The position numbers and the translations under genes are program-made. DNA of 64,000 bases from Bilabrum cf. latius (Eukaryota), in NCBI GenBank assembly GCA_965178125.1, contig OZ237771.1:186001-250000 (forward strand), in the 5' to 3' direction. This document shows, in pieces, positions 4,706 through 60,200 of this stretch (the first letter of the stretch is position 1; each line of letters starts with the position of its first letter). A model generated the notes under the pieces. The model was not told the DNA's origin. It ran no database searches and worked only from the letters and a program-made list of their open reading frames with translations.

Positions 4706-5885
4706 CTCAACCTCTACCTGCTGCTGGTCGGCTACCTGCGAGTATCGATGTGACGAGTGAGGATGGTGCGTGCGTGTGTGTGTGCGCGAGCGGGCAAGGC
4801 AGGGGGTGGCTGGCGGGGGGTTGCGGGGACATGTCCAAGAGCAAGACACTTGGCTTTGATCATCCGCGCGCGATATACGCAACCGTGGGTCTGCTTTACA
4901 AACGCGACATGGGTTTATTGAAAGCGCCTCGGGGTAATCGGTAGTGTTGTGAGCATGCCGCGTGCGGGTCTCCTGCCACGGAAAGGCAGCACCAATCAGC
5001 CCAGGGCAAAGCACTCATGCGTAAGAAACGCTTTCCTATAGTCGATACCCTGTTTTTGCACCATTTTGGTACGACGCAGTGCGTAATGCCAACAATTGCG
5101 CCAAACAGGCGCCAAGCACGAAACGGCACGCAGCTCCCGTCACGCCGCAAACGCATTCGCGGGATCTATCTCTGGCACACAGACAAGCAGTACATCCAAG
5201 TAACCAATTACTAGAAAACCCACAAGACATCCCAAAAGCAATACAACCAGCGAAACAACAGAGTGCCAAGGGCAGCCATAAAGCATCGCGAACAGCAACG
5301 AGACGTCTGTGATTCTGTGAATCATGAAGTCCTATCTTACCGATGCAGCCTGCGACACGTTGAAACAAATAATCAGATGGTATTCGAGTGGATGCCCTTG
5401 TTGAAGGTGATGCAGGCAAACATAGAGGGGTGCGGTGCACCGCGCTGACCGTTCGGCTCATACAGTACATTGTAAACCCATTCAGCGGCACGGCAAGTCC
5501 CTATAATTAAGCGATCACATTATGATATACAGCAATAAGTCCATATCTTACCATTTTGGTTTACTTTAAGTGCCCGATGCGGCTAAAAGACCGAGCAAGA
5601 CGCTGCGCGTCTTTTTATAACGAGCAATTATACCATCGTAGTCTGTATTTTGGCAATGGCACCATTGTTTGGAACAATCCGACACCGCTCGATTATTTTC
5701 TGATCGGAACAACTGGTCACTGATAAATCATTCAGGAATTTTATAATATCAGTTGATCCAAGATCGGCTTGAGTTGGTGGAAATCTGGTAGTCGGTCCAT
5801 CAGTTGGATTGCAACCTTGGTAGTTGTCGTATTCCCCCTGTTTTGAAGTCTATCAGCGGCAGCAGCTACCTGATTTAATCCAAGT

Positions 5886-8800
5886 ATGAGTGGGCGTCGG
5901 AAACCAATGAAACCTACTCGTAGTGCATCCAATGAGGCGTCAGATGCAGGCACTAAAATCGATGCTCGGGAGATACCTGGCCTGTAGCAGCTGCAGCAGA
6001 AGTATTCAGACTTAGTTAGACAGAAGAAGACAAAGGAAGCAAGTAAGCTTAAGCGAGAACTTTCTTAGATGCTGGAACACCTAGACAAGGGTACACAGGC
6101 GCAGTCGCCTCGTTCAGGTGAATCCGAACGACAGGCTTCCTCATCGTCTGCAGCAACCAGCAGGCAGCAGGGCCTCTCCGGCGCGGATTCGGCCCATTTT
6201 GCATCCAATGGACACGCGATGACGCAGGACGCCCGCGCCCTCGGCCTGCGATCGAGTGACCGGCCTTTCGCGCTGACCGAGCACGAGCACGCGAGGTGGG
6301 AAGCCATCCACGCCTTTGGACCGGCCGCCACCGCGCACCTCCAGCGGGACGGCTGGTGTGTGACGAGCATTGCGTCGGAAGTGCTCGACGCGCTGGGCTG
6401 GGTGTAGAGGCAGGAGGTGGCACGACGCGGTCCCCTGCTGCACGTGCTGTTCCGGTTATTCGCAAGGGCCACGGTGGAGGTCGCGGCGGGCTGGGGCGGC
6501 GGGTTTATTTCGAGCCCGGACGGCTCGCCAGGGCAGGCATCGCACCAGTTACACTCATCACACGGAAATAGGGTAATCGATCTGGACGATGACGGCGAGC
6601 AGCAGCAGCAGCAGCAGCAGAATCAGAGTAGTCAGCAAGACAGCGAATCAGCTAGGCGCCGCGAATTGCGGAACTTACGAACACGACAAGGTGCCGCTGC
6701 AGCGGCCGGAGCGCTGGTCCGTCGTGTGGCCCCCTTATTTCACTCGTCACACCCACGGGAGTGCCTGCTGCTGGCGGGTGTCCTGGGGGCCAAGCCCGCG
6801 GCCGTGGGCGCCATGCTCCGCCGGGTGGACGGTCTTTTTGATTCCGGATTAACGGCCGCGTCGGCGCTGGAAGGCCTGCGAAAGCTTTAGGCTCCGAATC
6901 CTCGCGCGGCCGGGCAGGGCTTGTGGGGCGGGGTGTCGGGCGACGTCGTTGCAGGTGGGTACGTGCCTGACGCTGTGCGGCTGGGTGTAGGCGCGATGCG
7001 GATGCAGGCCCTTGGGGAACAATCTTCTTGGTTCGACCAGCAGCAGCTGAACACGATGGGGGTCGGCGGGCAGCAGATGTTGGCGGCTTCGCTGCGGTCA
7101 CTCCCTGCCTCGTCCAGGCGAGCAGCGGTATTGGCTAAAGTGGCGGGATTGGCCACCCGCCCCGACAGGTTCACCGTGGAGGAACAGGGGCAGGCGGAAC
7201 GGATCCACTCGTCACATGGGGGTTCGACTCAGCACTCATCACAGGGGGGATACGGGAGGCTAGAGAGCGGCCTGGGTCCGCTGGCTCAGTCCACTGTCGA
7301 TCTCATCGGGGCCGCCGAGAAGGACGGTCCCGGTTCCGCGGACCCACCCTAGTTGAATATGTCCGTTGAGGTCGTTGGTAGCGTTGCGTTAGAGCGAGAC
7401 ACGCCCCCAGCCGCGGCTGTGCGCCTGTGGCAGATGGCAGGCGTGCTGCCCTCCGCTCGTGGGACGGTCCCGTGTGACGAGTGGGACCCTTCCGGGGACC
7501 GAGACGGGCGGGAGCTGGAGGGCGTCGTGGCGGCGCTGGCCGGTCGGATCGTGGTTCCGCTGTCGCGCGGCGCCGCCGCGGGATTCCGCAGGCACTTGCG
7601 TATGCGCGGGTGCACGGCACTGCAGCAGCTGCTGGAAGGAGGCGCCGTTTGCCTCGCCGTTGGACCATCGATCCAGGGAACCATATAGGACGCTGTTCCC
7701 TGGGAACGGGGCTTCTACGGGGTTGGAACCTGGGCTGGGGACTTGTCGGTGCCGCGCCCCATGTCCCCGCTTCCCCCAGGGGAATACCCCCGGTTCGCCC
7801 TCCCCGGGGTTCCCGGAACAGAGCGAAGGTTCCTTGGGGTGGATTCCCTCAGCCCACCCCCCGTCCTCCTTTGGGGAACAACGGCATCTCTGTTCCTGCA
7901 CGCGTCCGGGGGGTGGTTCGATGGCTCCCACAAGCGCATCCGCAGGGAGCGGCAGCGGCTGCACGCCATCAAGCAAGACAGCAGACAGGGGCATGGCCAT
8001 GGGCATGGGCATGGACAGTCAAGCGGTGCGATGGCTGCGGGTCAAGCTCAGTCCAAGAAGATGATTCCGCGCCCAGTGAAGATGATTCCGCACTGGGCGC
8101 CAAAACACCTCCCGCTGCCCATCGACGGTGGCGGGCCCACCGCACTCGTCACAGCGGCTTGCTCGTCAACTGACGCAATCGTCACACCGTAGGAGGCGTT
8201 GGATTTTTATAAAGAGGCGGCTCCACTGATGCCACCAGTGCGCTCCCCGCATGCTGTGTTCTCGGAAGCCATGGATCGGGAGGCTGTCAGATACCACGAT
8301 GTGCAGAGGGAAATGAGCAGGGTGTAGGGGGGGAATAGAGGCAGGGGAGAAGGAGGGGGGCGGGGAAGTGGAGGGGATGCCGACTCCCAGTCTGGTAGCC
8401 AAGAGCCGATTCCGCCGATCGAACTCAACAAACACATATCGACCGCCATCAGCAAGATGTTCAGCCTGACGATAAAACAGGCAGACGGTGCCGGCTTAGA
8501 GGCGCTGAGGGTCGTTCGGAAGCAAGCATTGTCGGGTCGTTTCGCGAAATCCATGAGCTCCGGTGCGGGATACGTCGAGCCGGGGAACAGGCACGATCTA
8601 GCACTCCGGAACCACTCGTCACACCGAATGCAGCTGGTACTGGGTGTTGCGGCAGCGGTACGACAGGAGCTGGGATGGATCGGGCTCGCACTGGCCGTGG
8701 ATCACGTGCACTGCGCGAGGCTTCTGGCGCCGCGCACTGGCAGCGGAACCAAGGCGGGGCATGGGGAGGGTGCAGCGAGCGCCGAGGGTGCTCACTCGTC

Positions 8801-11576
8801 ACCCATTGTGGGGCAGAAAAGGCGCCGCGCACCGGAGGTAGGGGGTTCCGCTGCGAAGCCCGTGGGTGAGCAGGTGTCCGTTCGGCTGCCATCGGCGGTG
8901 TCATTTGTGGCCGGACGGGCGGCGCCGCGAGTCGAATCCACGGGTGGAGTAACCACTACAGGAGGTGGTCAAAGCGGCGGTGCTACCGGCCGATCGTTTC
9001 CGGAGAGTGGCGGTCCTACGTTCGTGTCGAGCAGCGTGTCGCCCGCGGGAGTGATCCTGGCAGGTGGGACGGCCCAGGGCTCGATCCACCTCTGGAAGCG
9101 GCCTCCCTCCCACCACGGTGCCGGTTTGGAGAATGACTCCGCCGGGTGGCGCGTGGACGGCTCCCAACCCGACGGCACTGTGCATGCGGAGGTGCCTGCC
9201 CACCCGGGTGCAGTGACCCACCTGGTGTGGTGCACACCCGACGCCCACATGTGGAGGGTGGTAGACGTCCAGAGGCCGGAATCGGGGCGTGAGAGCTGGA
9301 GCGGTGTGACGAGTAGTGCGTATGACGAGCAGGTGGGGGCCACCCACGAGGGAACACACCTGCTCAGCGGGGGAACAGACGGATCCGTGGCTCTCTGGGG
9401 ACTCCTGACGAGCGTGCCAGTGCCGCAGTGGGATGCACCTACCGGTGAGGGGCATAGCTCCTCTTCGGCCGCAGCGGGTGCGGGCGGCAAATCCAAGGCT
9501 AATTCAGGCACGGGATCAGGAGGTCCGCACCGGCTGCTCCTCCGGCCGCAGTGCGTGGCCCGATACGGCACCTTGCCCGGCGGATTCGGTTCCGGTTTCG
9601 GACCCGTGTGTTCCCTGGCCGCACACCCGTTGCTTCCATCGGTGTTTGCGTCGTCCGGAACGGACGGGGCGGTGAGGGTCTGGGACACGTCGGTTGCAAC
9701 CGGTCCCGGCCGTCTGCTGGTAGGCCACACAGGCGCTGTGAGGAGCCTGTGCTTCCATCCTCAGGGGGGGCTGCTGGCGACGGGCGGGGGCGCCGGTGAC
9801 GGGGCGGTGAGGATCTGGAGGCTGGAGGACGGCAGGTGCGTCAGGTCGCTGGTGGGTGGTCATACCGGCGGGGTCACTTCGGTGGAGTGGTCTCCCGGGG
9901 GTCGGTTTGTGGCCTCTGGGGATGACGAGGGCGGCGTGAGGCTGTGGGACGTGGCCAGAGGCGTGTGCCTGCCTTATTTGAGCAAGCCTGTGACGAGTGC
10001 GAGCGGGGGTGGTCAAAGCGGGGGGCACCGGTGGGCCGCGGCGGTGTCGCTGGCGTTCAGCCCCTGCGGCCAGGTGCTGGCAGCGGGGTACTCTGGCGGC
10101 ATGGTCGCGATGTTCTCCGTCAAAGCCCACGTGAGTGCCGGCACGGGCTAGGCCCTGCTCACCCCCGGGGAAAACCCCCTGGGGATATCACCCCCCGTGC
10201 AGGGGCGACCCCCCCACGCCAAGGCGGGTCAGCAGGGCGGCGCCGCTCAGTCTCCGGCGCCGCGCGATTCCGGTTCCGCCGTCTACGAGCCCCTGACGAT
10301 CCCGCAGGAGCCGCTGGAGGAAGGCCTGGAGGGCGATCGCGGTGTGACGAGTGACACCGGGATTGCAGCGTGGCGCGAATCGGCGGCAGACTCTGTGGGA
10401 CACGGGAGGCGGAACCGAAGGCCCGACGAGCTGATACGGGCCGGGGCGGGGAAAGGCCGCCCCGTGCTGGCGGGGCATGGGGGTGACCCCAGGGTGGAGC
10501 CGGGGGTGGAGGCAAACCCGGGGTTTCCCGCGGCGGGGGCATTGCGCGGCGCCGCTGCGGTTCCGCAGTCGCTCTCTCAGGCCGCCGCGGCCGCGGCCGA
10601 AAACGCGGAACGCGTGCGCAGGAGTCAGCTGGTCCATGTCAGCGCTTTGAAGAGATCGCAATAGGACAGCACCCGGTTCAACGAGGCCAGCAGCCGTAAG
10701 GCGCAGCTGATGAACTCGTCGAGCCACGGGGGTGGGCAGATGTCAGACGAGGAGGCAAGACGAATCACCGACTACAGCCGCATCCACGAAATGCAGAAAA
10801 AGTCGGTGGCTCTGGAACAGCGCCTTTGGAAGGGTGATTACGAAGGGTGGCCGTGCCTGGAGCGCCTGAAAGCTCCGAGGATGCCCAGCCTGCTGCGGCC
10901 GCAGGGCGGTGTGACGAGTGCGGCGCCGCTGATGCCGCCTTCGGTGGGCGGTCCCAGGCTAGGAGGCGCGCACGGTTCCGGTTTTCCAGCGACGCTCGAC
11001 GCCGCGGCGGGACTGCCCGGCAGCGGAACCGAAAGTTCCGCAGACGGCGCCGCGCACCATGGCATGGGGAGGTTCGGCGCGGGCGTCGGAACTGTGCCCA
11101 ACCAGGGGGCGGGGGCTAGTGCCGCCCTCGGCGCGCACATTCGTCACACTCTCATGGGCACGGAGTGCGTCGATCTCGGGGCCATGCGTGGGATCGTGTG
11201 GGCCACTGAGACCCCCGCAGGGGGAAGGGGGCCCGGGGGAAATCCCCTGAGCCCGTGGGGTCCGAGCGTGCTGGCCGTGACCAGGGTGCGGAATTGTTCC
11301 CTGAGGAACCTTCGCTTCACCACGCGCGGGGTTTTGCTTGTGGACGGAGTGCCGACGTCGCGGCCGGCCCCGGCGGCCCCTGCGTGGGGCGCAGATGCAT
11401 CGCACGGTAGTGCTAGTCCAGCTGGCGCGGATTGCGATCCGCGCGACCTCCCTCGCGCGCTGGGTGATGCGGATCCGCTTGCTGTCAGGGCGAGGGCGGT
11501 GGATGAGCTGGCGCAGAAAGCCGTGGTGTCTTCCTTGTCGCATGCATTTGCGACCAGGCTGGGACTGGCCAGCTGA
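5886..11576 (+). CDS. TAF5: TAF5/TAF5L-like WD40 repeat protein (TFIID/SAGA subunit-like), 1,896 aa with long low-complexity insertions; needs TAG read as sense
   Basis: Eight ORF-track pieces (6069...11576) are all in one frame. Ten in-frame TAGs (5985, 6066, 6405, 6888, 7350, 7686, 8190, 8325, 10149, 10662), ATG 5886, TGA 11574-11576. WD40 blades (LLSGGTDGSVALWGL; GHTGAVRSLCFHPQGGLLATG; CVRSLVGGHTGGVTSVEWSPGGRFVASGDDEGGVRLWDV), an upstream LPSAVSF segment and a C-terminal LRNLRFTTRGVLLVDG segment recall TAF5 motif order. The symbol is from motif recall, not a search. Confidence 0.7.
6600..6620 (+). repeat. (CAG)7 microsatellite encoding poly-Gln in the TAF5-like gene
   Basis: cagcagcagcagcagcagcag read directly, in frame. 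Confidence 0.9.
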
Positions 11577-11781: not shown

Positions 11782-13941
11782 ATGCGTGTTATCCCGACAT
11801 GCACCTTTTTTGCCATTGCGTGTTGGCTTACATTTGCGGATGAGCCGTATGGATCCATTCCGTGGCCTCAGCCAGGGCACGATGCGTAGCACACGCACGT
11901 CTCGGCGGCAAGCGGTCCTTCGGCCAAACAACCCATCTTCATCTGGTGCGAGCCAACGCAAAGCGAGCAATACCCGTTTATGAAAACAGAGAGTGTTACT
12001 GGCTCGGATGGAACGGTGGCTGTTACTGGCCAGAGTTCGCTCGTCGTTCGCGATGGGAACAGCGGTGCCCAGCTATACACCGTCCCATTCGGGGACGAAT
12101 TCGACCCACTGTCTTCGCCTACAACGATCGGCTCTGGACTGTATATTGTCACGAACGGGTTTATGGCCAAGCAGCAGCCAATTGGAGGAATGTTTGACGC
12201 CAAATCCGGCGATCTTCTGTATAGCTTCAAGGACTTTTCCTCCAGCCCACTGCAGATTGGATTTTCCCCAGCCTTTGATCACAGCAGCGGAAAAGTTGCA
12301 TTTGCAGCGGATGCCGGAGGGGCCGGTGGGACCGCACCAAACCTTGCGGTGTACCACGCGGCCAGCGGGGAGCAAATTGCAGGCACGCGGATCTCTGTGA
12401 ATCCGTAGTGCCGGCCCTCTTGCGGCAGCGGCTGCACATCGCTGTATACGGGCAGGGGCGCGATGTTCCTGTTTGATGCGACGACTGGTGCTGTCACAAA
12501 GTTTCCGAAGAATGGCTACTTTCAGAACATGATTACCTGTGTTAGCGTGGCAGCGGGTGGCAGTGGCGGCAACGATACGTCATTCGTCGCGGCCACCGTC
12601 AAACCGAGCGACTGCATCGCATTGCGGCATGAGCTGGAAGGCGCGGCCGAATCCTCCGGTGACGATGCCGGGCGCGGACGCGCCGGCAGCGTCATCTGCG
12701 GCGAGCTTCACTCGTCACACTACGATTCCCCCGACGCCGACGTTCCCATCCTCCTGGCCGTGGACAGCCCCGCCGGTGCCATCTCACCGAACGTTCGCTG
12801 GCAGTCGGGGCTGTCCCCCGTGCACCTGCCCAGGGGGGAGTACGAGGGCCCCGATACGGTGCTTGGCGCCCCCGCCATCGTGCAATGCACTCAGCCGGGG
12901 CCGGGCCAGGACCCGCTGGCCGGGACTGTCGTGCTCGTCACATCGGGGCACGCGGTGTCTGCGTTCAGCGCGTCCACCGGTGGATTCGAATGGATCGTGG
13001 CGCTGGACGACTGGGCCATCGGCTCCAGCGTCGGTTCCGACGGCGTTGCGTTTGTCAGCACCAACACCACGCTGCAGGCGATCGACGCCTGCAATGGAGG
13101 TAAGCAGGTCTGGAAGATGGACAACGCGGCAATCCGATCCTCAATCCAGCGATGGACTGGGGGTGGACTCGCAGTCGACGGGGTGAAGATCCATTCACTC
13201 CCCACCATCGGTCGCAACGAGTCGCTGTACCTGCAGATGCACTACAGGAAGGATGATCAGGGTGACGACGACGTCAGTGTGACGAGTGGTATGGTCGATG
13301 GGTGGGTGGGTGACGAGGAGCAGGATACTCCTCACACCGGCGGTCTGGAGCTCGGCACGTACCTCCTGTGTGCCCTGAGCTCCCAGCTCCTACCCCCCAG
13401 CCCGTCGCCCACACCCTCCACCAGCCCCACCCCATCGGCCTCCCCGAGTTTTGGGAGCTCCCCTTCGCCCTCCCCCACTCCCAGCATCCCTGCAACCCCC
13501 ACCCCTACCCCTGGGGGCAACCCCGGGGGTAGTCCAACGGTGTTCGACCTAAAACGGGTGATTCTCCTAGCCGCCGGGGTCGTGGTCGTGATAGGCTGCT
13601 GCGTGGGGTTCTGCTGCTACCAGGGAACAAGGGGGCGGGGGTAGCCAGGGGGAACAGCGGGGGACGGGGCACCCTTGCTAGTTGGGGGGGCGGGGGATGG
13701 TCGTGTTGTGGGGGGTGTACCCCGGGGGTCCATGGGGGCAGGGCAGGGGTACCCTGCGATTCCGACAGCATAGGTGATTGCAACAGGTCAAGTGGCTGGC
13801 ACCACAGGACCGCTGGGCTAGTCTCATGCCAGCGGGCAGGCGGGTAGCATTCAGGGCGGGCGGCAGCACCCCTACCCTGGTATGCAGGGTGGTGTCTATG
13901 CTGGAGCTCCCAACGATTACTACTCAACTGCTGGGCGGTGA
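11782..13941 (+). CDS. Type I membrane protein with PQQ-like/BamB-like beta-propeller ectodomain, Pro/Ser/Thr stalk, one TM helix and Gly/Gln-rich tail (719 aa); needs TAG read as sense
   Basis: ATG 11782 gives signal peptide MRVIPTCTFFAIACWLTFA. Then WPQPGHDA*HT (resembles the WP.xGHDAQHT start motif of PQQ-type propellers), blades such as VSAFSASTGGFEW and LQAIDACNGGKQVW, stalk PSPSPTPSTSPTPS, TM VILLAAGVVVVIGCCVGFCCY. TAGs at 11887, 12406, 13642, 13771, 13819; TGA 13939-13941. Confidence 0.8.
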
Positions 13942-14752: not shown

Positions 14753-17700
14753 TTGAACCTCGCAGGCGCTAGATTGTTAGTAGTTGTAGTTGTGCCCAAT
14801 CTGATAGTAGAAGCGGCGGAGTTTGCTGATCAAGCTGATGACCGTAGTGGTGAGGACGTGGATTTGCGAACTCGTGCGGGCATAGCACGATGGGCTACTC
14901 TAGCTTACAACTGCCACCTTGTAGTAATATTGATATGCATTAAGAATAACCAGTACTTCCTAGCGAACCAAAGCCTGCATATCCTAGTCTGTACCAATGA
15001 GGCCGCAGGTTTTTGTTCCACTTGTGTACATCCTGTCGGAACTGCGGGCAACAGCCAGGTCGACGGCACCGATGCTTTTGGACCAAGCAAACTTGCATCA
15101 TCTAGTGAAGATAGGAGCCAAAATATGCCCTCACTGAGATATCCAGTCACGCGAACGCTAAGGAGCGACCGCTCGCTTCAGGCATCCCCGTCTCCGCTGC
15201 CATACGAGGAGCCGCTGGTGGATGGTGTGATAATGGTTGGCAATGGCCAAGGTGGCTTTAACGCAAGCCTGACGGATCCCACGGATAGGTTTGGCTTCGC
15301 TGTGACGAGCATCTACGACATCGACGGGAACGGCGCCCCTGACCTAGCGGTGGGTGCGCCGGATGACGACAGCGCCGCTGGAGAAGGTACGGGGGCCATA
15401 TGGGTAATCCGGATGCAGCAAGGTGGCATGGCTCTGGGCGTAACGAAGCTTTCAAGCTACGAAGATGGGATTCCGACCAACAGGTCTCCGTATGATTTCC
15501 TTGGTACATGGCTCTCCGCTCTGCTGCAGCCAATGGGGGACCAGCCTGAAATGGTGCGTCTGCTGGTGGGCTGTCCGAATTGCGATGGGGTGGCGATTTA
15601 GAACAGAGGTATGGTGATGATACTACGATTGCGTCCAAACGGCACAGTAGCCAACAGCACGGTCATTGGGGACGGTCAAGGCGGCATTCCATCCGGGACA
15701 TTGCCTCCCAAGGCAAACTTCGGGGACCCGATTAGCCCGATCGGCGACTTGGACCTTGATGGATATGTTGACGTTGTGGTCAGAGCCTACAACCTCATGC
15801 ATGGCGGCTCTGGTTATGGTGCTATCTTCATCCTGTTCATGCTTGGCGATGATACCGTCAAGAGCTTCACCCGCCTGAGCCAGGCTGTTGGTGAGGGGTT
15901 CGATTCTGCAACAATTGCCGGGTTACCACTCCATAACTTGTTTGGCGTCGGGATAGCCGCAATACCCCTGCAAGGCTACGATTAGCCCACTGGTCTGTTA
16001 GTTCACTTGCACCTAGATGGTATCAACGGGTTGGCGCTCGTGCAAATAAGCAGTAGTGGTTTAGTACCTGATCCGGATCAAGCAGTCGCCATTCTCGATG
16101 GCTAGGGCGGTATACCAAGCGGTTTGATCGAATCTGATTCATCATTTGGCGAATTTATAGTCTCGCCTGGAGATCTTAATCTTGACGGTGTTGCGGATGC
16201 CATCGTGTCAGCGACGATCGCGGATGCCGGTGGGATAGACTCGGGTGCATTATTCGTGCTGTACATGAACTACGGCTCGAGGACAGAGCCGGTGAAAGAT
16301 GCAGTCAAGCTGACCGTGCTGTCGCCTGGACTCAGTGGAATTGTCCCACCACATTAGTTCATGGTCGCCAAGGATGTCGTGCGAGGGTTGTCCCACCCCA
16401 ATCGTACCAGCATCGTCGTTGCATTTCTTGCAAATCCTAACACAGAGTCGATCGCCTTCCTGCAGCTGATTCCCCCTGAGCCCAAGCTCCCGCCTAGGTC
16501 GAGCATGGGTCTGAACCTCGAAGCGCATAACATTCTTGGGAATGGGTCGACGGCAATGCGGCCTGCTGCCACACAGGAGCAGTTTGGGCAGTCTGTGGCC
16601 GTGATCCGGTACGGTGGCAAGACAGCACTAGTTGCAACCGAGCACTGGGAGGACGACTCTGGACCAGCTGACAACGATTTCTTCCCCGAGCCTATCGGCA
16701 TCCCTGATTTTCTTGAGCGGCCCGGCGGTGTGGTACGCAGGCTTACCGAATATGGCCGTGATCCTATACAGCAGGACCGAGGCCAGCTGAGTTCAGATGA
16801 TGTCTTAAGTGCAGGCCAACAAGGTGCTCGCCGATTAAATGGCCCTCCGATCTCCATCAGGAGCCGCGTGTACATCACCCCAATTGATTCCAACACGAGC
16901 CTGCCTTCAGGACCGACACAGGTCTTCGAACCCGGTGTGACGAGTGGACTTACCAGCCCCGGCCATGTTCCAGAGAACAGCATGTTTGGGCATGTGGTGG
17001 TTGGACTTGGGCCCGGTGTTGAGAGGCCTGGGTTCCCCGGCATGCACATGCACTGCGCCGATCTCGCTCTGGGCACACCGCTGGCAGAGGACTGGTCCTT
17101 TGGGTATTCCAGGGCAGGTGGGTTCACAGTCATGCGGTTGTGTGAGCAAACTGCAGATGGACCACTGTATGTTGAGTCCGCTGAATCATACGATGCGACT
17201 CATGTGCGGAATACTGGCTTGGCCATCGGCAGCGATAACGCGTACATCGGGGTAGCCCTAGCATTTTGGGAGGGATGGGGCACTCTGTACGTGGGTGTCC
17301 CGGGAGCTGACAGCGATGACGGGGCGATTGTGGCCTATGAAGTGAACCCTCTTGCTCCTATCTTAGAGGCTGTTGCTCCTCAAATAGTGCTTCGCGGGCT
17401 TCCAACTGCAGGCATGAGGTACGGATCGCTGATGGCTCCCTCCGTGGGCGAGAGAATCGATCCCGTGCATGGAGACACGCGGGTCCTTCTTGCCTTCACA
17501 GCTATGGACCATTCTTCCAAGATGCAGCCGTTCCTCGCCGAGCTGGGAGGGGCCGCTGGCCTGAGCGTTGACACCCTGCACGAGGCATTGAACGACATAA
17601 TAGGTGAAGAGATCGAGGATAGCTTCAATAGTACTGGACGAGAGTGCTACAGGGGTCTAGAGATGGCAGACCTGACTGGTGATGGGTAGAAGGAGCTGAT

Positions 17701-31100: not shown

Positions 31101-32280
31101 TATTCGCGGAGGGCTCGGATCAGACTCAGGCGCACTGCATTGTGCTGCAGGCGTTTGGCTGCAGCAGAGGCACCAGGGGTATGGTGTGATGAGTGCTGGG
31201 CCTCGGGGGGAGAACGGAACTGAGCTGCAGCCGCTTCGCTACTGCCCTGTTCAGGCGTCGCTGCCACCACACTCTCCCGGTCCTGTCGCGCTGCTAGGCT
31301 GCTGCTTACCTCAGACAGCCTTTCATAGCACGAGGCATTGCGCGCATCGATGGCGTTGTCTATCAGAGCCTCCGTGTTCTCGTCTCCGAGCAACTCGCCA
31401 ACCATGCGGAGCTGGTCAATGTCACTAGTCCCGATTGTGCCCTGGCCTGACTCGATCCGGTTCGTCAGCACGGTCTGTAGGACCTGCAGCTTCCTCCTCA
31501 AATCACCCACCTTGGAGCCCAGGTGCACCTCGGCCACTGACCTAAGCTCCAGCTCGCGCCAGATGGGGAAGTACCGCCGCTGGAAGCACGCGTCACCTGC
31601 CTTGCTGAACAAAGCGGTCATGATTGCATCGGCCGGGAACTGCATCACGGAAGCAAGCACAGCGAAGACCCCGCGCTCCCATAGCGCCAGTGGAACGAAG
31701 TCATCAACGCCATCGCAGTCATCATCAATCCCAGAGTAGTCCGCTCCCGTGATGCTGTAGAAGAACGCCGTGGCAAACATAGCCACGAAAATCACAGCCA
31801 GCAGCTGGCCCAGCCGCATGATCCGATCCTGCTGGTAGTTAAACCGGAAGAAGGCCGCCAGGAAGATGTGCTCGAACGGCAGTCGGGCGCACCACAGGCG
31901 AAGCAAGTCGCACCGCAGGACCCAGGCCCGATAGCATGCGCTCATCGCCGCGAGCTGGGAGGCCGTGTGTCCGGTGCCTGCCTGTAGGATATCTGAAGTT
32001 GCGCGAGGTTGTATCCCTGATCCGTGTTTGACCAGGTTGGATCCGACCTGCTGCTCCGGTTTCTCGTTGACCACTCCTGCGTACATGCCCCGTATGTTGC
32101 GACCAGCTGCCGCGAGGTTACCGGTTGCAACCGATCTCTGCTGCCCTCCTGCGACCGACTCGGGTTCAACTCTCACGCTGCAGCACCACTTGTAGCAGCA
32201 GTAGCAGCACCCGTCCTGGTGCTGCCTCTCCACTTTGTCAGCACTGCGAGCCATCAGCTCCTGCTCCACGAACACTCGCG

Positions 32281-35676: not shown

Positions 35677-35710
35677 GCGGTTGAGCATCGTAACACAACC
35701 TTAAGTTATC

Positions 35711-44657: not shown

Positions 44658-47600
44658 TGCTGACTGTAGGCGTAGCCGATGGTGAGACAGAAGGGCATGC
44701 TGATGTGATAGGCCCGGCCGGTGGACCCCCAACGGATGCTATGTAGACTGCTCCTGCCTGTGGACCACCTGTTTCGTCTTGGTCGGCGCCGAATATGAGT
44801 TCCACACGACCGTCGCCATCGAGATCATTGATTGAACCTGATACACCCCACATTGTACCTGTGCTCAGCACGCCATTGATGCCTTGCGTGTTGATGTCCA
44901 GCACCGTGACGCCTTGTACGAGATTTACGGTGGTAGGCGAGGTGCAGCTGAGGTAGAAGATGAAGTTCTTGCCTGTGTCCTGACCACCCGTGTCGTCCGA
45001 GGGAGCACCCACAGCGATGTCCGTGATACCATCGCCGTTCATGTCACCAACATTGGCTACCCGAGACCCAAATTCAGACATTGCTTGAATGCTCCCAGCT
45101 GGTACCCCTTCCTGCCCATCCCTGATCACCCTCACGGATCCAGGCATGACAGTCCCGTTGGACTGAATGCCGAAGTAGACAACTGCGTCGCTCCCCCTCG
45201 CGCCTGCAACCAGGTCAATTGAATGAAGGGGGGATCGGGGCAGGATGGTTGCAATTGAAAACCCAAGGAGCCGCACCTGTGGCTGGATGGAACTCAGGCC
45301 AGTGGACTGGGAGATCTTGGTGGTGGAAGCCACGGTGTCATCACCGTTCATGATGTGGATGAAGATAACACCACCATCTTCGTCACCTCCAGAAGCAGCG
45401 GATGCAGTGACAGCGATATCAGTCATACCATCACCGTCCAAGTCACCGAGGTTACTGGAAGCCTGCCCGTACCTGCCTCCAACTGGCAGTGTACCTGTAG
45501 GAATGCCATTGAGTCCATTATGCAGCACCACCGTGTTGGTGACCGTGCCGCTTGCGTCCAGGCGGAAAATGTAGGCCCTCCCAGTGAGCGACTAGCCGTT
45601 CACATTGAGGAATGGCTGGCCCGCGACCACCCGCGGGTTTGCTCCGTCCTATCCGTTGGGCTGGTCGTAGCGACACAGACCAGACCCGAACTGTGATCCT
45701 GTCCTTGGCCCGTATCCAGACGCATATATATTTCCACCAGAACCCAGGTGGTACTCAGTGTAGCTGTCCACGGTCTTGTCGGCGTTCATCATTAGAATCG
45801 CGAAGGAGCCTGCGCCGGTGCCTCCCCCGCTGGCTTGGAACAGCGTGACGCCCATGTCCTCGACGGAGTCTCCGTTCATGTCTCCGAGTGATACAGCGTG
45901 GCGGCCAAACCAGTCGCCTGACCGCGGAAATCCCACCGGCAGTCCTGTCTGCCCGCTGGTGATCTTGACCATGGATACTACAGCGCCGACTGGTGCAGGC
46001 GAGGGGCTGGGGCTAGCCAACGGCAATGGCCCACGAATGCGAAGCATGCCTACTTCTTCGAACAGTGGCCTCGGCACCGCAATGAACGTGTCGATCATGC
46101 CCAGTGGCTGGTTTACGACCTGGTGATACACAGCAGGTCCCCTCCCAAACTGATGAGATGTAGTGTAGTTGATTGCCACTTGGTCACCCGTCGTAATTGT
46201 CTGATCCAGCGGTGGATGGAGCACTTGCCGAGCGAGAGGTATTTCGATCTCGTCGTGGTTGAGCTCCACAGCGACAAAGAAATGACCCTCACACCCAATG
46301 ATCAGCTCCTTCTACCCATCACCAGTCAGGTCTGCCATCTCAAGTCCCCTGTAGCACTCTCGCCCAGTACTATTGAAGCTATCCTCGATCTCTTCGCCTA
46401 TTATGTCGTTCAATGCCTCGTGCAGGGTGTCAATGCTCAGGCCAGCGGCCCCTCCCAGCTCGGCGAGGAACGGCTGCATCTTAGAAGACTGGTCCATAGC
46501 CGTGAAGGCAAGAAGGACCCGCGTGTCTCCATGCACGGGATCGATCCTCTCGCCCACGGAGGGAGCCATCAGCGATCCGTACCTCATGCCTGCACTTGGA
46601 AGCCCGCGAAGCACTATTTGAGGAGCAACAGCCTCTAAGATAGGAGCAAGAGGGTTCACTTCATAGGCCATAATCGCCCCGTCATCACTGTCAGCTCCCG
46701 GGACACCCACGTACAGCGTGCCCCATCCCTCCCAAAATGCTAGGGCTACCCCGATGTACGCGTTGTCGCGGTCGATGACCAAGCCAGAATTCCGCACAAC
46801 CGATGCACCGTATGATTCAGCAGACTCGACATACAACGGTCCATTTTCCGTTTGCTCACACAACCGCATTACTGTGAACCCACCTGCCCTGGAATAGGCC
46901 TACCCAAAGGACCAGTCCTCCGCCAGCGGTGTGCCCAGAGCGAGATCGGCGCAGTGCATGTGCATGCCGGGGAACCCGGGCCTCTCAACACCGGGCCCCA
47001 GTCCAACCACCACATGCCCAAACATGCTGTTCTCTGGAACGTGGCCGGGGCTGGTAAGTCCAATCGTCACACCGGGTTCGAAGACCTGTGTCGGTCCTGA
47101 AGGCAGGCTCGTGTTGGAATCAATGGGGGTGATGTATACTCGGCTCCTGATGGAGATCGGAGGGCCATTTAATCGGCGAGCAACTTGTTGGCTTGCACTT
47201 AAGACATCATCTGAACTCGGCTGGCCTCGGTCATGCTGTATAGGATCACGGCCGTATTCGGTAAGCCTGCGTACCACACCGCCGGGCCGCTCCAGGAAAT
47301 CAGGGATGCCGATTGGCTCAGGGAAGAAGTCGTTGTCTGCTGGCCCAGAGTCGTCCTCCCAGTGCTCGGTTGCAACCAGTGCTGTCTTGCCCCCGTACCG
47401 GATCACAGCCACAGAGTGCCCAAACTGCTCCTGTGTGGCAGCAGGTCGCATTGCCGTCGACGCGTTCCTAAGAATGGCATGCGCTTCGAGGTTCAGACCC
47501 ATGCTCGACCTAGGCGGGAGCTTGGGCTCAGGGGGAATCAGCTGCAGGAAGGCGATCGACTCTGTGTTAGGATTTGCAACAAATGCAACAACGATGCTGG

Positions 47601-50099: not shown

Positions 50100-51431
50100 T
50101 CACTGCCCAGCGGTTGAGTAGTAATCGTTGGGAGCTTCAGCATAGACACCACCCTGCATACCAGGGTATTGGTGCTGCTGCCCGCCCTGAATGCTCCCCG
50201 CCTGCCCACTGGCATGAGACTGGCCCAGCGGTCCTGTGGTGCCAGCCACTTGTCCCGTTGCAATCACCTGTGCTGTCGGAATCGCAGGGTACCCCTGCCC
50301 TGCCCCCATGGACCCCCGGGGTACACCCCCCACAACACGACCATCCCCCGCCCCCCCCAACTAGCAAGGGTGCCCCATCCCCCGCTGATCCCCCTGGCTA
50401 CCCCCGCCCCCTTGTTCCCTGGTAGCAGCAGAACCCCACGTAGCAGCCTATCACGACCACGACTCCGGCCGCCAGGAGAATCACCCGTTTTAGGTCGAAC
50501 ACCGTTGGACTACCCCCGGGGTTGCCCCCAGGTGTGGGGGTGGGGGTGGCAGGGATGCTGGGAGTGGGGGAGGGCGAAGGGGAGCTCCCGAAACTTGGGG
50601 AGGCCGATGGGGTGGGGCTGGTGGAGGGGGTGGTCGACGGGCTGGGGGGTAGGAGCTGGGAGCTCAGGGCACACAGGAGATACGTGCCGAGCTCCAGACC
50701 CCCGGTGGGAGGAGTATCCTGCTCCTCGTCACCCACCCACCCATCGACCATACCACTCGTCACACTGACGTCGTCGTCACCCTGATCATCCTTCCTGTAG
50801 TGCATCTGCAGGTACAGCGACTAGTTGCGACCGATGGTGGGAAGAGAATGGATCTTCACCCCGTCGAGAGCGAGTCCACCCCCAGTCCATCGCTGGATTG
50901 AGGATCGGATTGCCGCGTTGTCCATCTTCCATACCTGCTTATCCCCATTGTAGGCGTCGATCGCCTGCACCGTGGTGTTGGTGCTGACGAACGCAACGCC
51001 GTCGGAACCAACGCTGGAGCCGATGACCCCGATGTGACGAGCACGACAGTCCCGGCCAGCGGGTCCTGCCCCGGTCCCGGATGGGTGCATTGCACGATGG
51101 CGGGGGCGCCAAGCACCGTATCGGGGCCCTCGTACTCCCCCCTGGGCAGGTGCACGGGGGAAAAGCTGTGCTGTCCACTGCCAGGAGGATCAAAACGTCG
51201 GCGTCGGGAGAATCGAAGTGTGACGAGTGAAGCTCGCCGCAGAGGACGCTGCCGGCGCGTCTGCGCCCGGTATCGTTACCGGAGGATTCGACCGCGCCTT
51301 CCAGCTCGCGCTGCAGTGCGATGCAGTGGCTCAGCTTGACGGTGGCAGCTACGAATTGCGTGTCATTACGGCCACTACCGCCTGCTCCCCCCGCTGCCAA
51401 GCTAACACAGGTAATCATGTTCTGAATGTAG
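50100..51431 (-). pseudogene. 5'-truncated, frameshifted duplicate of the PQQ-like propeller gene (11782-13941)
   Basis: Homologous to 12516-13941 but lacks the signal peptide and first third. It has internal deletions, and the homologous peptides fall in different frames (ORF pieces ending 51448, 51155, 51090/50805, 50360). Confidence 0.85.
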
Positions 51432-54294: not shown

Positions 54295-57200
54295 TCACGG
54301 CAGCGGGCCCCGTCGCTTGCCCCCACCCTCCTGTGCCCCCATCGTGTCTGCAAGCGTCGGCCGCAGCCAGGGATGGGCCCTCGCCTGTTCCGCACTGAGC
54401 CTCCTCAAAGGGTCCCGCTGCAGCAGACCGCCGATCAGATCGATGGCATCGGGGCTCACACCGTCCCAGGCCTCCGGCTCGAAGAGCACGTCTCTCGAGA
54501 GGCAGCGGCTGGCGGGCTCGAACGGGAGGAAGCCCGCAAGCAACTCGAATAGAATCACGCCCAGGGCCCAGCAGTCCACGGCAGTGCCGTACGGTTTCTG
54601 AGCCAGCACCTCGGGAGCGATGTAGCCCTGGGTCCCAGTCATGGCCTCGAAAGGAACAAGCCCTACGTCCCCAGTCACCTTGTAGTACCGGGCGTCCCGC
54701 GACCGCCTGGCATGGCCAAAGTCGCACAGTTTGACCACGTCGTACACGCCCAGGAGCCCCGCGCCCCGCTTGCCCAGACGCTCCACGGACAGCAGCACGT
54801 TCTCTGGCTTGAGATCGCCGTGGAGAACCTTCTTCTCGCCGTGGAGGTAAGCCAGTGCCTCGAGCAGCTGGTCGGCGACTCGCTTGGCCTGCCTCTCGCT
54901 CAGGAAGCCCTGGCGAGTGCGGCCCGGCATGGCGGGCATGGGGTAGCCATACCCGCTCGACAGAGCGGTGGATACCGAAGCAGTGCTAGCCCCAACCCCT
55001 CCTGACGCGCTCCGCATCGGGCTGATGTTTGACCCGGGGATAGAGGGGCTCTCAGCGCCCAACGCGGATACTCCACCGGTAGCTGCAGGCTGTGCCGCGG
55101 CACTCTGTTTCTTTTTCTGCTGCGCTTTGGCCGCCTCTCTCTCCCTAGCTGCCTGCCTGTACTGCCGCCTCAACTTGCCCTGTCGGATCCCCTCCTCCCT
55201 CATGTACGCCTGGAGGGTGCCGCCTGTGACGCACTCCATGACTAGGAAAAGATACTCTGAATTCTCAAAGGCGTCCCAGCAGCGGACGATATGCCTATGT
55301 CTCATGGCCCTTGACAGCTGCACTTCCCTGGCTACGCAGGCGCGATCCTCGGCAGTCTGCAGGTAGGCTTTCCGGATGCACTTGACCGCAACCTGCTGCT
55401 GGTGTCCCCCTCGATGGCCGTGGTGGCTGTGGTGGTGGTGTGCGGCAGCAGATGGCCTCGTTTTTCCGCCGGCGTGGCTCGAACCGGAGATCGACCTGCC
55501 CTTGCGACCAGCAGACGCATACGACTGGGATTTCCTGGTCCCAACCTGCACCTTGGCGTAACCTCCGTCACCGAGTGTCTTGCCCAGCTCGAAATAGTCT
55601 TCCAGCTTCCTCCTGCCTGCCCCATCGCTCGTGTCAGGCAGAGCCTTCCATTCAGTGGAGGATGACGAGGAGCTGTTTTTCTTGGGCTGCCGCGTCGCTT
55701 TTGGGACTGATGCCGACCGTTCCTGTCCATCGTCAGCACCGGAACCAGCTGCACCATCGTGCCGTGCACCGTCAGCTGCAGACAAGTTCCTGGCCGCAAA
55801 TTCCTGCCACTCCTTGCCGAGGAGGGAGGGGGCGGTATGGCGCGGAGGCGGCTCGCTTTCGATTCCGAATCCAAGGTGAGGCGGCGGGTCGGTGCCCTGG
55901 GTACCGCGAGCCGCTACCCGCTTCACGGGCGAGTCTGGAATCCCGTGCACATCGCGGCCGGCAACGCCGCCATCGAATCTCCCAGGGATGTACAGGCCGG
56001 TGACAGCCGTCGAGGAACTTTCGACCGAGGCACCACGCTGCATTTCGGTAAGCTCCGATACATCAGGAGAAGCATCGTGCTGTTCCGGCGGCTGGTTCCG
56101 TCGGTGCCCTGCTCCGATCGTTGTGAGGCTGCCGAATGTAGATGCCTCACCCCGTGCACCACCCACAGAATCGCCGCGATCTGGCGGCCGGTCGAGGCTT
56201 GAGTCGGGCCGTGCGATACGTTGGCCTGCACGTTCTTGAAGTCCACTGGAATACTTGCCGTCGTCATCGCCGAAGGGCCCTTCCCCAGCGCTGCCAATGC
56301 CCGCCCCTACGTCGCTGCCACCTGCCCGCATCGCACGCCCAATGAGGTATGGCCTTGGGGTCTCCATCCCTCCTCTATCCCCAGTGGCAGAGCCCTCCTC
56401 CACACCCATCCATAGAGCCGTTGAGCCAGAGGCAGCCGTGGCACCATCGTCGCCCGACCCGGGTCCGGTGCTCTGTCCGCTCCGCTGACCGGGCCGTCGG
56501 ATCCTCATCCGATCATCGATCCGATCATCGATCCGATCATTGATCCGATCCTTGGAGGAGGCCCTGCCCCGGGCGAACGCCATCAGCTCGCCCACAGGTG
56601 ACCCTGGGGAAGCGCTCCTGCGCCCATCGCTGGCGAGCTCGCCTCTGGGCGTGGGCGGGTGCACGTCGAAGTGACCATCGTCATCGTCGTCGTCGTCATC
56701 ATCGTTGTCGTCTTCAATATCGTCATCATCGACATCTTCATCCCTTCCTCCCTCGGGGCCTGAGCCATCGCTGGCGCTGCTTGCACTGGCATATCGGTCT
56801 GCCTTCTTGGTCCTGCGCCAGGCGCTGCTCCCCGCCCTTGAGGAACCGTGATACTCGCTAGCCTCGGCTGAATCCACCGATGGATTGGTTCCTACCCGGT
56901 CGCGACCCGACCCCGGAGTCTGACCATGCCCGGCCAATCTGTCACCGGCCCTGCGATCAGACCCGCGAGGGAGGTCCAGAGCCAATCCACCTTCCAAATC
57001 ATGCCGTTCTCGCGGGTCCATCCCGCGCTGGACATCGCGACTTTCAGCATCAGTCGTCCCACCGCCGGCTTGTTGCTCTTCCATGTCCAGCCCGCTGCTG
57101 TAGTGGTTCGGTTCCGTCTCCGTTTCGTCTTCCTCTGTCTCACCCGTTGGACCTAGGCTAGCCCCGTGCGGAACACGCCAGCGACCCGCCCTTCCGCCGC

Positions 57201-60200
57201 GCCCCTCGGGCACGATTGAGATTGAGATGTCGGCCTCATCGGAGGCGACTGGACGGCCATCGGCTGGCACTAGTGCAGGTCCCGGCCCCTGCCGGTCGTC
57301 GATACCGGCCTGAATCTGAAGGACACCGCCCCTTCCACCGTGCCTTCCGGTCTTGCGTGTCACGTTGCGGCCTCCTCTGACGCCTGCACGCGCGTGAGCT
57401 TGGCCTGCACTGCTGGTGTCTGAAGAGGCCGAGGGCGACATGCCGCCGCTCTCCGTCGTGTCATCCAGTCCAGAGGGCGATTCAGATGCCCCGGCATGAC
57501 GAACAGAGTGCGGGTGCTGTGAGCCCTTGACCAGCATCGACGGTTCTTTAGTACCCTAGGCACCCTCTGTGCCCTCCCCTTGCTGTAGTGGCGGTGCTTG
57601 GTCCCGGTCCAGCGGCATCCCTTCCTCGTCGACCAGCACCCAATCGGGGCGCTGCTGATGATGCACTGCATGGTGGTGGTGGTGCACTGCATGGTGGTGA
57701 TGCCCGGCAGCTGCCAGCCTGGTGCCAGGGCTGGGCCGCACCTGCCAGCTGGGCGATAGCTCGGTGTCACGCAGCACGGAGGGAGTGTGATCCACGTCAG
57801 CCGGGTCACCATGAAGCGGCCCTGTGTTGACAGGCTCAGATGATTCGGCAGGGGCCTCTGTTCCAGCAACACGAGCCTCTGACCCTGTAGGGGAGGGGTT
57901 GAGCATCAGTTCGGGCATCGAAGCTGATTGCGGCTAGCCATGTCTTGATGTCGCTGACACCGATGTTGACAGTTCCAGGGCAGCAGATGGGGCAGATGGG
58001 TCATGGTCGTGGGTGCTCCCAGCTCGATTCCGTGGCAGGCTCCCTGTGAGTGTGGGTGCCAGCATGGGGGAGACTGTGGGCAGATTGCCGCGGCTCCTGA
58101 CCTCCGGCGCGGTGGCATCGGCGAGTCCAGTCGAGACAGGTGCATTGCCTTGCATTGCACCATCTGCAGGTATTCGCTCTGCGGATGCACTCTGGGTCGT
58201 GTTATCGTTCTGGACTTCCACGCGTCCATCAGGCGCATCTTTAGCAGCAGGCGGTGCGGCGTGGGTGAAGCCCCCTTCAGCTTGGGAGCTCGCTGACGCC
58301 TGCTCACCGGTGGGGTCCCGACTAGCCTATGCCTGGTCGGTGTGACGAGTGATCCGGTCACGCCTAGGTCCCATGGTCGGGGACTCGTCTTGCCCCTTGC
58401 CAGTGCCGTGACGAGTGCGATCGGACGGTGGGGGGCGAGTGTCAGACCCGATCGAGTGCATCCTGGTGCGACGAGACCGGCTGCGGCTGCCGCTGTGACC
58501 GCTGTGACGAGTGCTAGACCTCCGTCCGGAGCCGCTGCGGCTGGGCGAGTGGTGCTGCCCGTGGCTCTTCACGCGCCGGTGCGCCTCTGTCCGGCCGCCG
58601 TGGTGCTGGTGCCTCGAGCGACCTCCCCTTGATCTGTGGTGCGCACCATCGTGCGATGCACCACGAGTGACTCCTGGGTCTTGCCTAGTACCCTTATTCT
58701 TGCCTTTGATCGTCTGGCGCTTGTGACTGCTGCTATGCCCCCCGTCCATCAGGAAAGCCGGCCTGTCCACGGCATGCTTCATCTTCCCGTCCACCTTGCT
58801 GTACCGCCCCTCGCCCGTCGGTCCACCAGCCCCTGCAGCGCCTGGCGACCTACCCGTACCATCGGCCCCGGCGTTGAGATACATCACGGCTCTGAATCGC
58901 TCGCTGCCTCCACCGGCGCCGTAGTAAATGTACTGCTGCTTGGGTGCCGGCCTGCGACTCCGCTGCGTGCGGGAAGTACTGACACCTTGGTGCGCCTGGG
59001 AGGGAGGGTCCATTGGTGCTGACGGGAACCGTGCGGCGTCCATGCCTTGGGGCCACTACTAGTGTGACGAGTAGAATCCTGCGGGCCCTCCCATCGCGCT
59101 GCCGATGTGTTCTCCTGGCACGACGCCGAGTGCACTCGCTGCTCCATGCACTGTTGATGGACCGTCGCCAGGACTGGCTGGCAGCGTAAGTCCGTGAGCA
59201 GTCCGGTCGTTCTCCGGGTCTAGATCCAGTCCAGCGGTAGGCCAGTGTGACGAGTGCTGCCATGGAAACAGCCTGGTCTTCGAGTGTCTCTGTTCGATGA
59301 GATCCGCGATGTCGCGCGATGAATCAGTAGAACCCGGGGCAATGCCGCTGTAGCCGTCCAAACCAGCCAAAGCGGTGGACCCCGGCAACATGCCGCCGCT
59401 AGATCCGGCTTCGATTCCAACGGATATGACCGGATCGCTGCCTAGCATGCTGCTCTGCATGCCTGCGCTATCCCACCCAACTCCGCCTGGGAGCAGCCTG
59501 GAGCCATGGGAGTCGCTTGGCGCATGTTCCGCAAACATGCGCGGCGCCGATGCGAGGGCACTCGTAGTGGGCGGCACCATCCCGTGGAGACTTCCGGGAT
59601 AGCCAGCCGTTGCGGGGTCAGTCGATGCATCTCCTAATCCACCGGTGGATTGCTGGGTCATTGTCCTCATGGGGACACTCCCTGCAGAGCCGCTCGGGCC
59701 ACCGTGCGGCACACCTTGGCCGGGCATATCGCCTGTGAGCTGCGGCGAGGCAGGGCCGTGAGGGGGACTGAGGGTTTGGCCATTCACTCGATCCGCTGGC
59801 TGACGGGTTTGGCCACCCCCACTCATGACGCCCCACTGCATGGCCATGGGTAGCAGCCTCGGATGCTTGGTTCTGATCCTCTGCATCAGGGATCCAATTC
59901 TGGACTGCGTGAATGCGTGGGGGACGCCGGCCAGCTCGGCTGCCCGAAGAGCCTCAAGCTGCTGAAGCAGCTGCCTCTCCCTGTGACTCAACCGATAGTT
60001 CTTGCTAGAGACGCTCCCTGATCTCTTGCGATGCGCACCGGCATTCGGTACGCTGTGCAGGTCTCCAGCCCCTGTGGTTCTCGCCCTTGCCATTGCAGGG
60101 GATTCTGTGCCCCCAAGCGCGGCGCCAGAATCAGCAGCATGCAAGCCCCCGGCGGCAGAAGCACCTGTTCTACCATAAGTGTCGCGACTACCAGATTGTT

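Follow-up and report, generated by a model that had tools for sequence, protein, structure and literature searches.

An 11-nucleotide word over-represented in the coding DNA of a TAG-recoded protist, possibly a recognition sequence

What keeps one short DNA word in place, copy after copy, inside the coding sequence of a eukaryote? The question is raised by a stretch of 64,000 nucleotides (nt) from Bilabrum cf. latius (GenBank assembly GCA_965178125.1, contig OZ237771.1, positions 186,001 to 250,000 of the forward strand), hereafter the window, to which all coordinates below refer. Scanned on both strands, the window contains the 11-mer TGTGACGAGTG (hereafter the word; its reverse complement is CACTCGTCACA) in 19 exact copies, the first at 4749 and the last at 59256.

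Excess and form of the word

The word is far more frequent than composition predicts. In 100 dinucleotide-preserving shuffles of the window, the mean number of exact copies is 0.05 and the maximum is 1, which puts the excess at 300-fold or more. When one mismatch is tolerated, 32 sites are found against 1.26 expected, i.e. 13 near copies where an initial annotation of the same DNA had given at least 12, and the number of sites with exactly 2 mismatches (n = 20) is at about chance level by a rough estimate. Three exact copies (42166, 50754, and 51219) are owed to an inverted duplication, which a self-comparison places at 12516–27834 vs 51431–28834 with 93–97% identity. The remainder, 16 independent copies, matches the count of the initial annotation, which had listed the same 19 at identical coordinates.

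The excess also persists when the genes themselves provide the null model. The listed open reading frames (ORFs) contain 17 copies of the word, compared with a mean of 0.01 (maximum 1) when codon order is shuffled within genes, and a mean of 0.33 (maximum 2) when the proteins are kept and synonymous codons are shuffled (300 shuffles each). Codon-aware null models thus fail to account for the word, and codon or dinucleotide bias, which the initial annotation had named as a possible refutation while proposing a codon-preserving shuffle as a check, is excluded for the ORFs of the window by the three types of shuffle.

Copies occur about once per 3–4 kb in the window and in the relatives described below. 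Gene B (5886–11576) is the densest carrier, with 8 exact and 6 near copies, and a stretch of gene H (58341–60624) holds 3 exact and 3 near copies; the clusters previously noticed at 4.7–13.3 kb and 58.3–59.3 kb are confirmed. Overall, long ORFs or duplicated copies of those ORFs contain 18 of the 19 exact copies. The copy at 4749 is the sole nonduplicate exact copy outside the listed ORFs, and would give HSSH in an in-frame upstream extension of the ORF at 4220–4705.

A profile of 26 independent sites is near-invariant at all 11 positions of the word, with a weaker C, G, and G at positions −3 to −1 (18/26, 13/26, and 17/26, respectively) and no signal on the 3′ side. The conserved block therein is 11–13 nt long, which is no multiple of 3, and its edges ignore codon boundaries. 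Variants with one mismatch fall at positions 1, 6, 7, 9, and 11, include C>T changes at CpG, and resemble exact copies that mutation has eroded. Beyond the word, flanks are unrelated (at most 0.5 bit per position), the longest shared extension among 325 pairs of flanks being 7 nt, and nothing longer is consistently shared beside the copies of the window, nor are inverted repeats or target-site duplications seen there.

Several familiar types of repeat can be set aside. A transposon, a miniature inverted-repeat transposable element, or a decayed dispersed repeat is rejected, as only 11–13 nt are common to the copies and target-site duplications are missing; a tandem repeat or minisatellite is rejected, as Tandem Repeats Finder places no array at any copy in the window. 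A hairpin or other RNA structure is likewise rejected, the 51-nt contexts of the copies having a mean minimum free energy of −14.2 kcal/mol vs −13.5 ± 4.8 kcal/mol in controls; the window contains no Rfam match and no tRNA gene.

Relative to transcription, the 26 independent sites with at most one mismatch in ORFs comprise 9 in sense and 17 in antisense orientation. Sense copies are read as VTS (8) or CDE (1), and antisense copies as HSS (10), LVT (3), or TRH (4). All five stop-free frames of the word are occupied, and the sixth, which contains TGA, is never used. The commonest readings are (G)VTS and HSSH, with the Cys-containing CDE(C/W) being rare. As a result, some tripeptides are inflated over what composition predicts (VTS, 19 vs 5.0; HSS, 15 vs 3.6), and their spelling follows the word. 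Specifically, GTGACGAGT spells 7 of the 19 VTS, while AGT makes up just 10% of Ser codons, and CACTCGTCA spells 6 of the 15 HSS; each of the 6 HSSH is spelled by the word or by a variant one base away from it. Because both orientations and five frames are used, a single codon spelling recurs, and shuffling of synonymous codons does not restore the count, the constraint is supported as one on DNA and not on peptide. This is what the initial annotation had proposed from five translated examples (HSSH at 6741, CDE at 7473, LVT at 8143, VTS at 9989, and TRH at 58341), all of which are correct, and which count as coding only when TAG is a sense codon.

The copies favor low-complexity, Gly/Ser-rich protein segments outside Pfam domains, a setting that had also been noted before. 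In gene B, only 1 of 8 exact copies (9989) falls within the range matched by WD40 repeats, and its surroundings there are rich in Gly and Ser. The copies of gene H are located at residues 1110–1871, and the kinase domain has none. All copies, together with these two carrier ORFs, are listed in Table 1.

Table 1. Copies of the word in the window and the two ORFs richest in them; gene letters name the ORFs of the window, and peptides are the translations across the copy
Feature	Position	Strand	Context
ORF B	5886..11576	+	1896 aa, 10 in-frame TAG, ends TGA; WD40 repeats at residues 1234-1414
ORF H	54295..63963	-	3222 aa, 12 in-frame TAG; protein kinase domain at residues 2850-3200
Exact copy	4749..4759	+	44 nt upstream of ATG of small ORF 4220-4705 (-)
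Exact copy	6741..6751	-	gene B, HSSH
Exact copy	7206..7216	-	gene B, HSSH
Exact copy	7473..7483	+	gene B, CDEW
Exact copy	8143..8153	-	gene B, LVT
Exact copy	8613..8623	-	gene B, HSSH
Exact copy	9989..9999	+	gene B, PVTS; Gly/Ser-rich stretch within WD40-matched range
Exact copy	10343..10353	+	gene B, GVTS
Exact copy	10910..10920	+	gene B, GVTS
Exact copy	12709..12719	-	gene C, HSSH
Exact copy	13278..13288	+	gene C, SVTS
Exact copy	16936..16946	+	gene D, GVTS
Exact copy	21501..21511	-	gene D, LVT
Exact copy	42166..42176	+	duplicate of 21501, other arm of inverted duplication
Exact copy	50754..50764	-	duplicate of 13278
Exact copy	51219..51229	+	duplicate of 12709
Exact copy	58341..58351	+	gene H (- strand), TRH
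Exact copy	58503..58513	+	gene H, TRH
Exact copy	59246..59256	+	gene H, HSSH
One-mismatch copy	6552..6562	-	C6>T at CpG site, HSSH
One-mismatch copy	7233..7243	-	C6>T, 27 nt from 7206, HSSQ
One-mismatch copy	8176..8186	-	33 nt from 8143, IVT
One-mismatch copy	8793..8803	-	HSSP
One-mismatch copy	9305..9315	+	GVTS
One-mismatch copy	11138..11148	-	IRH
One-mismatch copy	22372..22382	+	gene D, IVTS; duplicate at 41295
One-mismatch copy	31185..31195	+	gene E (-), HSSH; other-arm partner at 25481 has 2 mismatches
One-mismatch copy	41295..41305	-	duplicate of 22372
One-mismatch copy	47061..47071	-	G9>T; other-arm partner of exact copy 16936, flanks identical
One-mismatch copy	58407..58417	+	gene H, TRH
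One-mismatch copy	59063..59073	+	gene H, YSSH
One-mismatch copy	60624..60634	-	gene H, GVTS

TAG as a sense codon and the lineage that carries the word

Under the standard or bacterial code, the region rich in the word appears as a string of medium-sized ORFs. In gene B, however, the codon-phase GC profile is constant over ~6.1–11.4 kb, all 9 in-frame stops of this stretch are TAG (6066, 6405, 6888, 7350, 7686, 8190, 8325, 10149, and 10662), and the frame terminates at TGA. Reading TAG as sense resolves the window into giant ORFs, whose lengths are 1896, 4347, 3234, and over 3222 codons. Together, eight ORFs contain 64 in-frame TAG and not a single in-frame TAA or TGA; six end at TGA, one at TAA, and the eighth leaves the window. 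The two arms of the inverted duplication disagree at a TAG three times, each time with CAG in the other arm (3 of 3), and TAG therefore probably encodes Gln.

Nuclear codes in which TAG alone is reassigned are rare, the examples in the available passages being a rhizarian, a fornicate, and some ciliates. The window differs from Amoebophrya, in which the strain with recoded stops is described as reading all three stops as sense, and the available passages of these papers do not mention the word (10.1101/2024.09.05.611473, PMC7789003).

The host is a eukaryote, as seen from GT..AG introns and from eukaryotic domain architectures (protein kinase, WD40, FG-GAP, REJ, and GPS domains by Pfam), and belongs to a GC-rich protist lineage that reads TAG as sense. 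Its proteins are highly divergent; for example, homologues of the kinase domain share no more than 57% identity across one third of the query, and the best named relative of this domain, from Cafeteria, shows 41% identity.

Is the word a property of this locus or of a lineage? Metagenome contigs were scanned for two copies of the word 5–35 nt apart, and at least 118 loci match. Among the 118 matches listed, most are tandem repeats in unrelated organisms, and 7 are TAG-sense by a strict ORF test (L003, L026, L035, L046, L071, L074, and L100), i.e. their longest ORF grows 1.5- to 4.6-fold solely with TAG as sense. Three further loci are suggestive (L006, L050, and L116). No TAG-sense locus overlaps the window, while L035 and L100 overlap one another. 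The nine TAG-sense or probably TAG-sense contigs amount to 35,724 bp with a GC content of 0.56, and carry 8 extra clusters of copies besides the selecting pair, vs 0.018 expected from composition, or about 1 per 4 kb. Translated within the long ORFs of these contigs, the word gives GVTS-type peptides (17, including one CVTS), HSSH (5), CDEC (1), and TTRH (1), in low-complexity segments. The 5′ GG is kept in these relatives and the C at −3 is not. For example, L071 has two HSSH copies between two stretches that align to esterases of ~290 amino acids. Because the relatives carry the word at a like density and in like frames, the word belongs to a TAG-recoding lineage and not to the window alone.

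Seven loci in viral contigs are irrelevant, given that the word lies there in low-GC or tandem-repeat contexts and none is more open with TAG as sense. In two low-GC metagenome contigs of unrelated organisms that are not TAG-sense (L038, 859–962; L108, 2100–2203), the word and its reverse complement stand 4 nt apart in near-perfect palindromes, a repeat of another, hairpin-type kind that contains the word by coincidence.

Contigs of public sequencing runs were compared with the window as well. A DNA contig of run X1 matches 4041–12843 without any difference. Contigs of X5, which comes from a study other than that of X1, cover 9 exact copies unspliced and unchanged, and those of X6 and X7 cover some more. 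If X5–X7 represent RNA, which is only a guess, the word may perhaps be retained in mRNA. These copies, unchanged in the contigs of other studies, together with the unrelated flanks, exclude adapter contamination and a single decayed transposon, the two origins that the initial annotation had regarded as fatal to its claim. At three copies (10910, 13278, and 16936), X1 contigs have joints 2–5 nt before the word whose sides extend over just 20–25 letters; we read them as short cross-matches from other loci that bear the word, and not as rearrangements.

The same contigs bear on splicing. Contigs of X5 and X7 skip two GT..AG introns, at 14504–14765 (262 nt) and 14849–15007 (159 nt), which begin with GTAAGC and GTGAGG and lie upstream of a long ORF starting at 15125; introns appear rare in the window. 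A splice signal or an intron-borne element is rejected as the nature of the word, since X5 contigs run unspliced through 9 copies (their RNA nature being guessed), the intron starts differ from it, and the GC phase of gene B is constant. Introns bounded by inverted pairs of the word (7206/7473 and 12709/13278) are rejected too, as contigs of X5, X6, and X7 cross them and their lengths are no multiple of 3 while the frame is kept.

Explanations weighed

The explanation that we favor, tentatively and as possible rather than probable, is that a DNA-binding or DNA-processing factor recognizes the word, which is maintained by drive or by selection on the DNA. It is favored because the 11–13-nt profile is sharp and ignores codons, orientation is indifferent, exact copies are dominant and accompanied by decay-like variants, and the word persists across the lineage. 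Under this explanation, (G)(G)TGTGACGAGTG would be a word of double-stranded DNA read by a sequence-specific factor. Its high copy number would be kept either by selection for many sites per gene or by a drive that favors copies, such as biased repair or gene conversion, and purifying selection on the proteins would set where and in which frame copies persist, a population-genetic pattern like the one described for uptake sequences in bacterial coding DNA. The process served could be recombination or repair, the organization of chromatin, or self-marking; the chromatin, insulator, origin, or recombination factor suggested by the initial annotation is a conjecture. A more specific proposal, which we consider unlikely yet worth stating, is that the word is a eukaryotic counterpart of the uptake- or Chi-type "self" words of bacteria, spread in a TAG-recoded protist clade by a dedicated DNA-reading system. 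Such a system could act through gene conversion or repair that favors the motif, or by labeling genes as the organism's own and so shielding them from genome defense or DNA elimination.

A number of points weigh against a recognition sequence. Its functional step is pure inference, and we know of no mechanism by which a eukaryote would spread such a word. The present data do not distinguish drive from selection. In the comparison of the duplicated arms, a single base differs between the 4 exact copies of one arm (44 bases in total) and their partners, vs an arm divergence of 3–7%, a difference that is not significant. The genome-wide claim is based on 64 kb and on ~36 kb of relatives that were found via the word itself. 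In addition, the window has short local duplications, with pairs of copies 27 and 33 nt apart, and replication slippage or insertion would yield these too. Arrays such as (GVTSD)x4 and (GVTSDA)x3, with periods of 15–41 nt, are present in the relatives; they were selected by the two-copy search pattern, which favors arrays, and are hence no evidence of a duplication tendency.

One rival is that of short in-frame insertions, in which a unit of 12–18 nt, with the word as its constant portion, would enter genes in either orientation, only the tolerable in-frame ones being kept. Candidate sources are the scar of a site-specific recombinase, the excision of a transposon or of an eliminated sequence, and a templated patch of break repair. 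Random orientation, the use of all five open frames, the location of copies in lineage-specific low-complexity insertions, and the existence of short tandem duplications of the word plus flank are all in line with this idea, as is the extra flank shared by a few pairs (9 nt upstream with a 2-nt indel for 8143/9989; 7 nt downstream for 58407/60624). A fixed in-frame unit should, however, be a multiple of 3, and the block is instead 11–13 nt long with sharp edges that ignore codons and with a 3′ flank that is not conserved. Moreover, neither a target-site duplication nor a consistent flanking repeat is seen, the duplicated arms show no presence/absence difference, and contigs of four runs, with incomplete coverage, have no indel at any copy. 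No reverse transcriptase, integrase, recombinase, or transposase domain is present in any window ORF scanned with Pfam, and the retroelement of the initial annotation thus finds no reverse transcriptase or integrase match behind it. Homologues with which insertion could be compared with substitution number 0 both for the gene C piece and for the SMC-like N-terminus of relative L026. On balance we regard insertion as unlikely, if still to be reckoned with. More doubtful is a functionless by-product, i.e. a coding unit born by slippage (e.g. GVTSD) and spread among disordered regions by ectopic gene conversion. The low-complexity Gly/Ser-rich segments that host the copies fit this origin, as do the arrays of the relatives and the fact that most of the other 108 metagenome loci listed are plain tandem repeats containing the word. 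Against it, copies in the window are single, with unrelated flanks and no array by Tandem Repeats Finder, the relatives' arrays reflect how they were searched for, and slippage of a coding unit does not predict both orientations or unrelated peptides.

The remaining candidates invoke RNA, transcription factors, or error. As a signal at the RNA level, the word would be recognized in mRNAs by a small RNA or an RNA-binding protein; its copies do lie in transcribed sequence, and RNA-like X5 contigs cross them unspliced, but sense and antisense copies are both common (9/26 and 17/26), their contexts fold like controls, and Rfam has 0 matches in the window, which makes such a signal very improbable. 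An ordinary site for a basic leucine zipper (bZIP) factor of the cAMP response element (CRE) type would act as an intragenic enhancer or promoter element. This idea takes up the half-site named in the initial annotation, and draws on the TGACG core and on the copy at 4749, which precedes the start codon of a small, highly covered gene by 44 nt. Yet 18 of 19 exact copies are in long ORFs or their duplicates, the palindrome TGACGTCA is no part of the word, and all 11 positions are near-invariant, unlike a degenerate half-site. With near-maximal information over 11 positions plus the 5′ GG, the word exceeds a TGACG half-site, and we consider this lead weak and its chance of being right slight indeed. 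An artefact, for instance remnants of adapters, primers, or barcodes, or a misassembly, can practically be dismissed, as long ORFs read through the word in frame, runs of other studies give contigs with the identical sequence, and separate metagenome assemblies of TAG-sense organisms contain it as well.

How does a recognition sequence of this kind compare with known words? Words that are over-represented genome-wide and embedded in coding DNA are a textbook trait of a few bacterial groups, in which they reveal a DNA-reading machine (an uptake receptor or RecBCD) and a drive that reshapes the proteome; we are not aware of an equivalent described from the nuclear genome of a eukaryote. The closest parallels are the uptake signal sequences (USS) of Pasteurellaceae and the DNA uptake sequences (DUS) of Neisseriaceae, whose density is of the same order as the one copy per 3–4 kb seen here. 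Like the word, these are 9–12 nt long, hundreds-fold over-represented, present in both orientations and often inside genes, with exact copies that predominate and near copies that resemble decay. According to the available passages of Findlay and Redfield, USS and DUS inflate tripeptides, bias the reading frame, and prefer poorly conserved genes and residues (PMC2817400), and when tested for these traits the word likewise shows inflated tripeptides, a biased reading frame, and a location in poorly conserved segments. The host, by contrast, is a eukaryote and not a competent bacterium with a sequence-specific uptake receptor, and the biased uptake that spreads USS is a drive with no known counterpart here.

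Chi, an 8-mer read by RecBCD in bacteria and co-oriented with replication, resembles the word in that it is short, over-represented, tolerated in coding DNA of Escherichia coli and relatives, and read by a recombination machine. The word differs in its length of 11–13 nt, in its eukaryotic host, and in having orientations that are mixed along the 64 kb and within genes. Because the host is a eukaryote and there is no orientation skew, the word is not a member of USS/DUS or Chi. HIP1 of cyanobacteria is also a highly iterated short word embedded in coding DNA, but it is a palindromic octamer, and the word is not HIP1 because it differs from its own reverse complement. A TGACG core is shared with CRE/ATF sites of bZIP factors, including the M26 recombination hotspot of fission yeast. 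M26-type sites act within coding DNA, and CRE/ATF sites are 7–8 nt long, degenerate, and not over-represented; the word, in contrast, has only a half-site of the CRE palindrome, its near-invariance extends over 11 positions, and its copies are mostly in ORFs. Finally, Rickettsia palindromic elements and other in-frame mini-insertions are likewise repeated DNA translated within host proteins. The Rickettsia elements measure 100–150 nt and have a conserved internal sequence and structure, whereas only 11–13 nt are common to the copies here, with no fold. Full-text literature searches with the word and with its reverse complement yielded only unrelated topics, as judged from titles, such that a mention elsewhere is possible, and a broader search on 11-mers over-represented in the coding regions of protists gave no result.

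Neighboring features and meaning of the word

Besides the word, the window has other features of its own. The small ORF at 4220–4705 (minus strand) encodes 161 amino acids with hydrophobic segments and has no Pfam match. Its contig reaches 5350, and its depth in X5 is 317 vs ~15 for the neighboring gene, so that it is probably a highly expressed gene. At 11313–11425, an X6 contig of depth 4 skips 113 nt with CG..GG ends, bordered by a direct repeat of 3 nt (CGC). This skip could be a noncanonical intron like those described in the available passages on Amoebophrya (PMC7789003), a deletion allele, or a library artefact.

One arm of the inverted duplication contains an intact ORF of 4347 codons with FG-GAP, REJ, and GPS domains, while its copy in the other arm is split by ~7 kb containing satellites. 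These lie at 33821–34409 and 35223–35678 (107-bp unit) and at 35712–38798 (112-bp unit, 27.6 copies). The 112-bp array is open in several frames, has no Pfam match, and is the source of the commonest k-mers of the window. A coding tandem repeat with a unit of 36 bp, rich in Ser, Pro, and Thr, differs in number between the arms, with 8.9 copies at 19339–19658 and 17.9 copies at 44019–44662.

The recoding of TAG is a notable finding in its own right, and the word is a practical signature for spotting contigs of the TAG-recoded lineage in metagenomes. If a dedicated reader exists, the word would be a handle for finding that factor, and for testing biased gene conversion or self-marking in the lineage. 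If the word does act as a mark of "self", scaling from the window would give thousands of copies per genome, depending on genome size, and an inflation of GVTS and HSSH peptides would, as a by-product, visibly reshape the proteomes of these protists.

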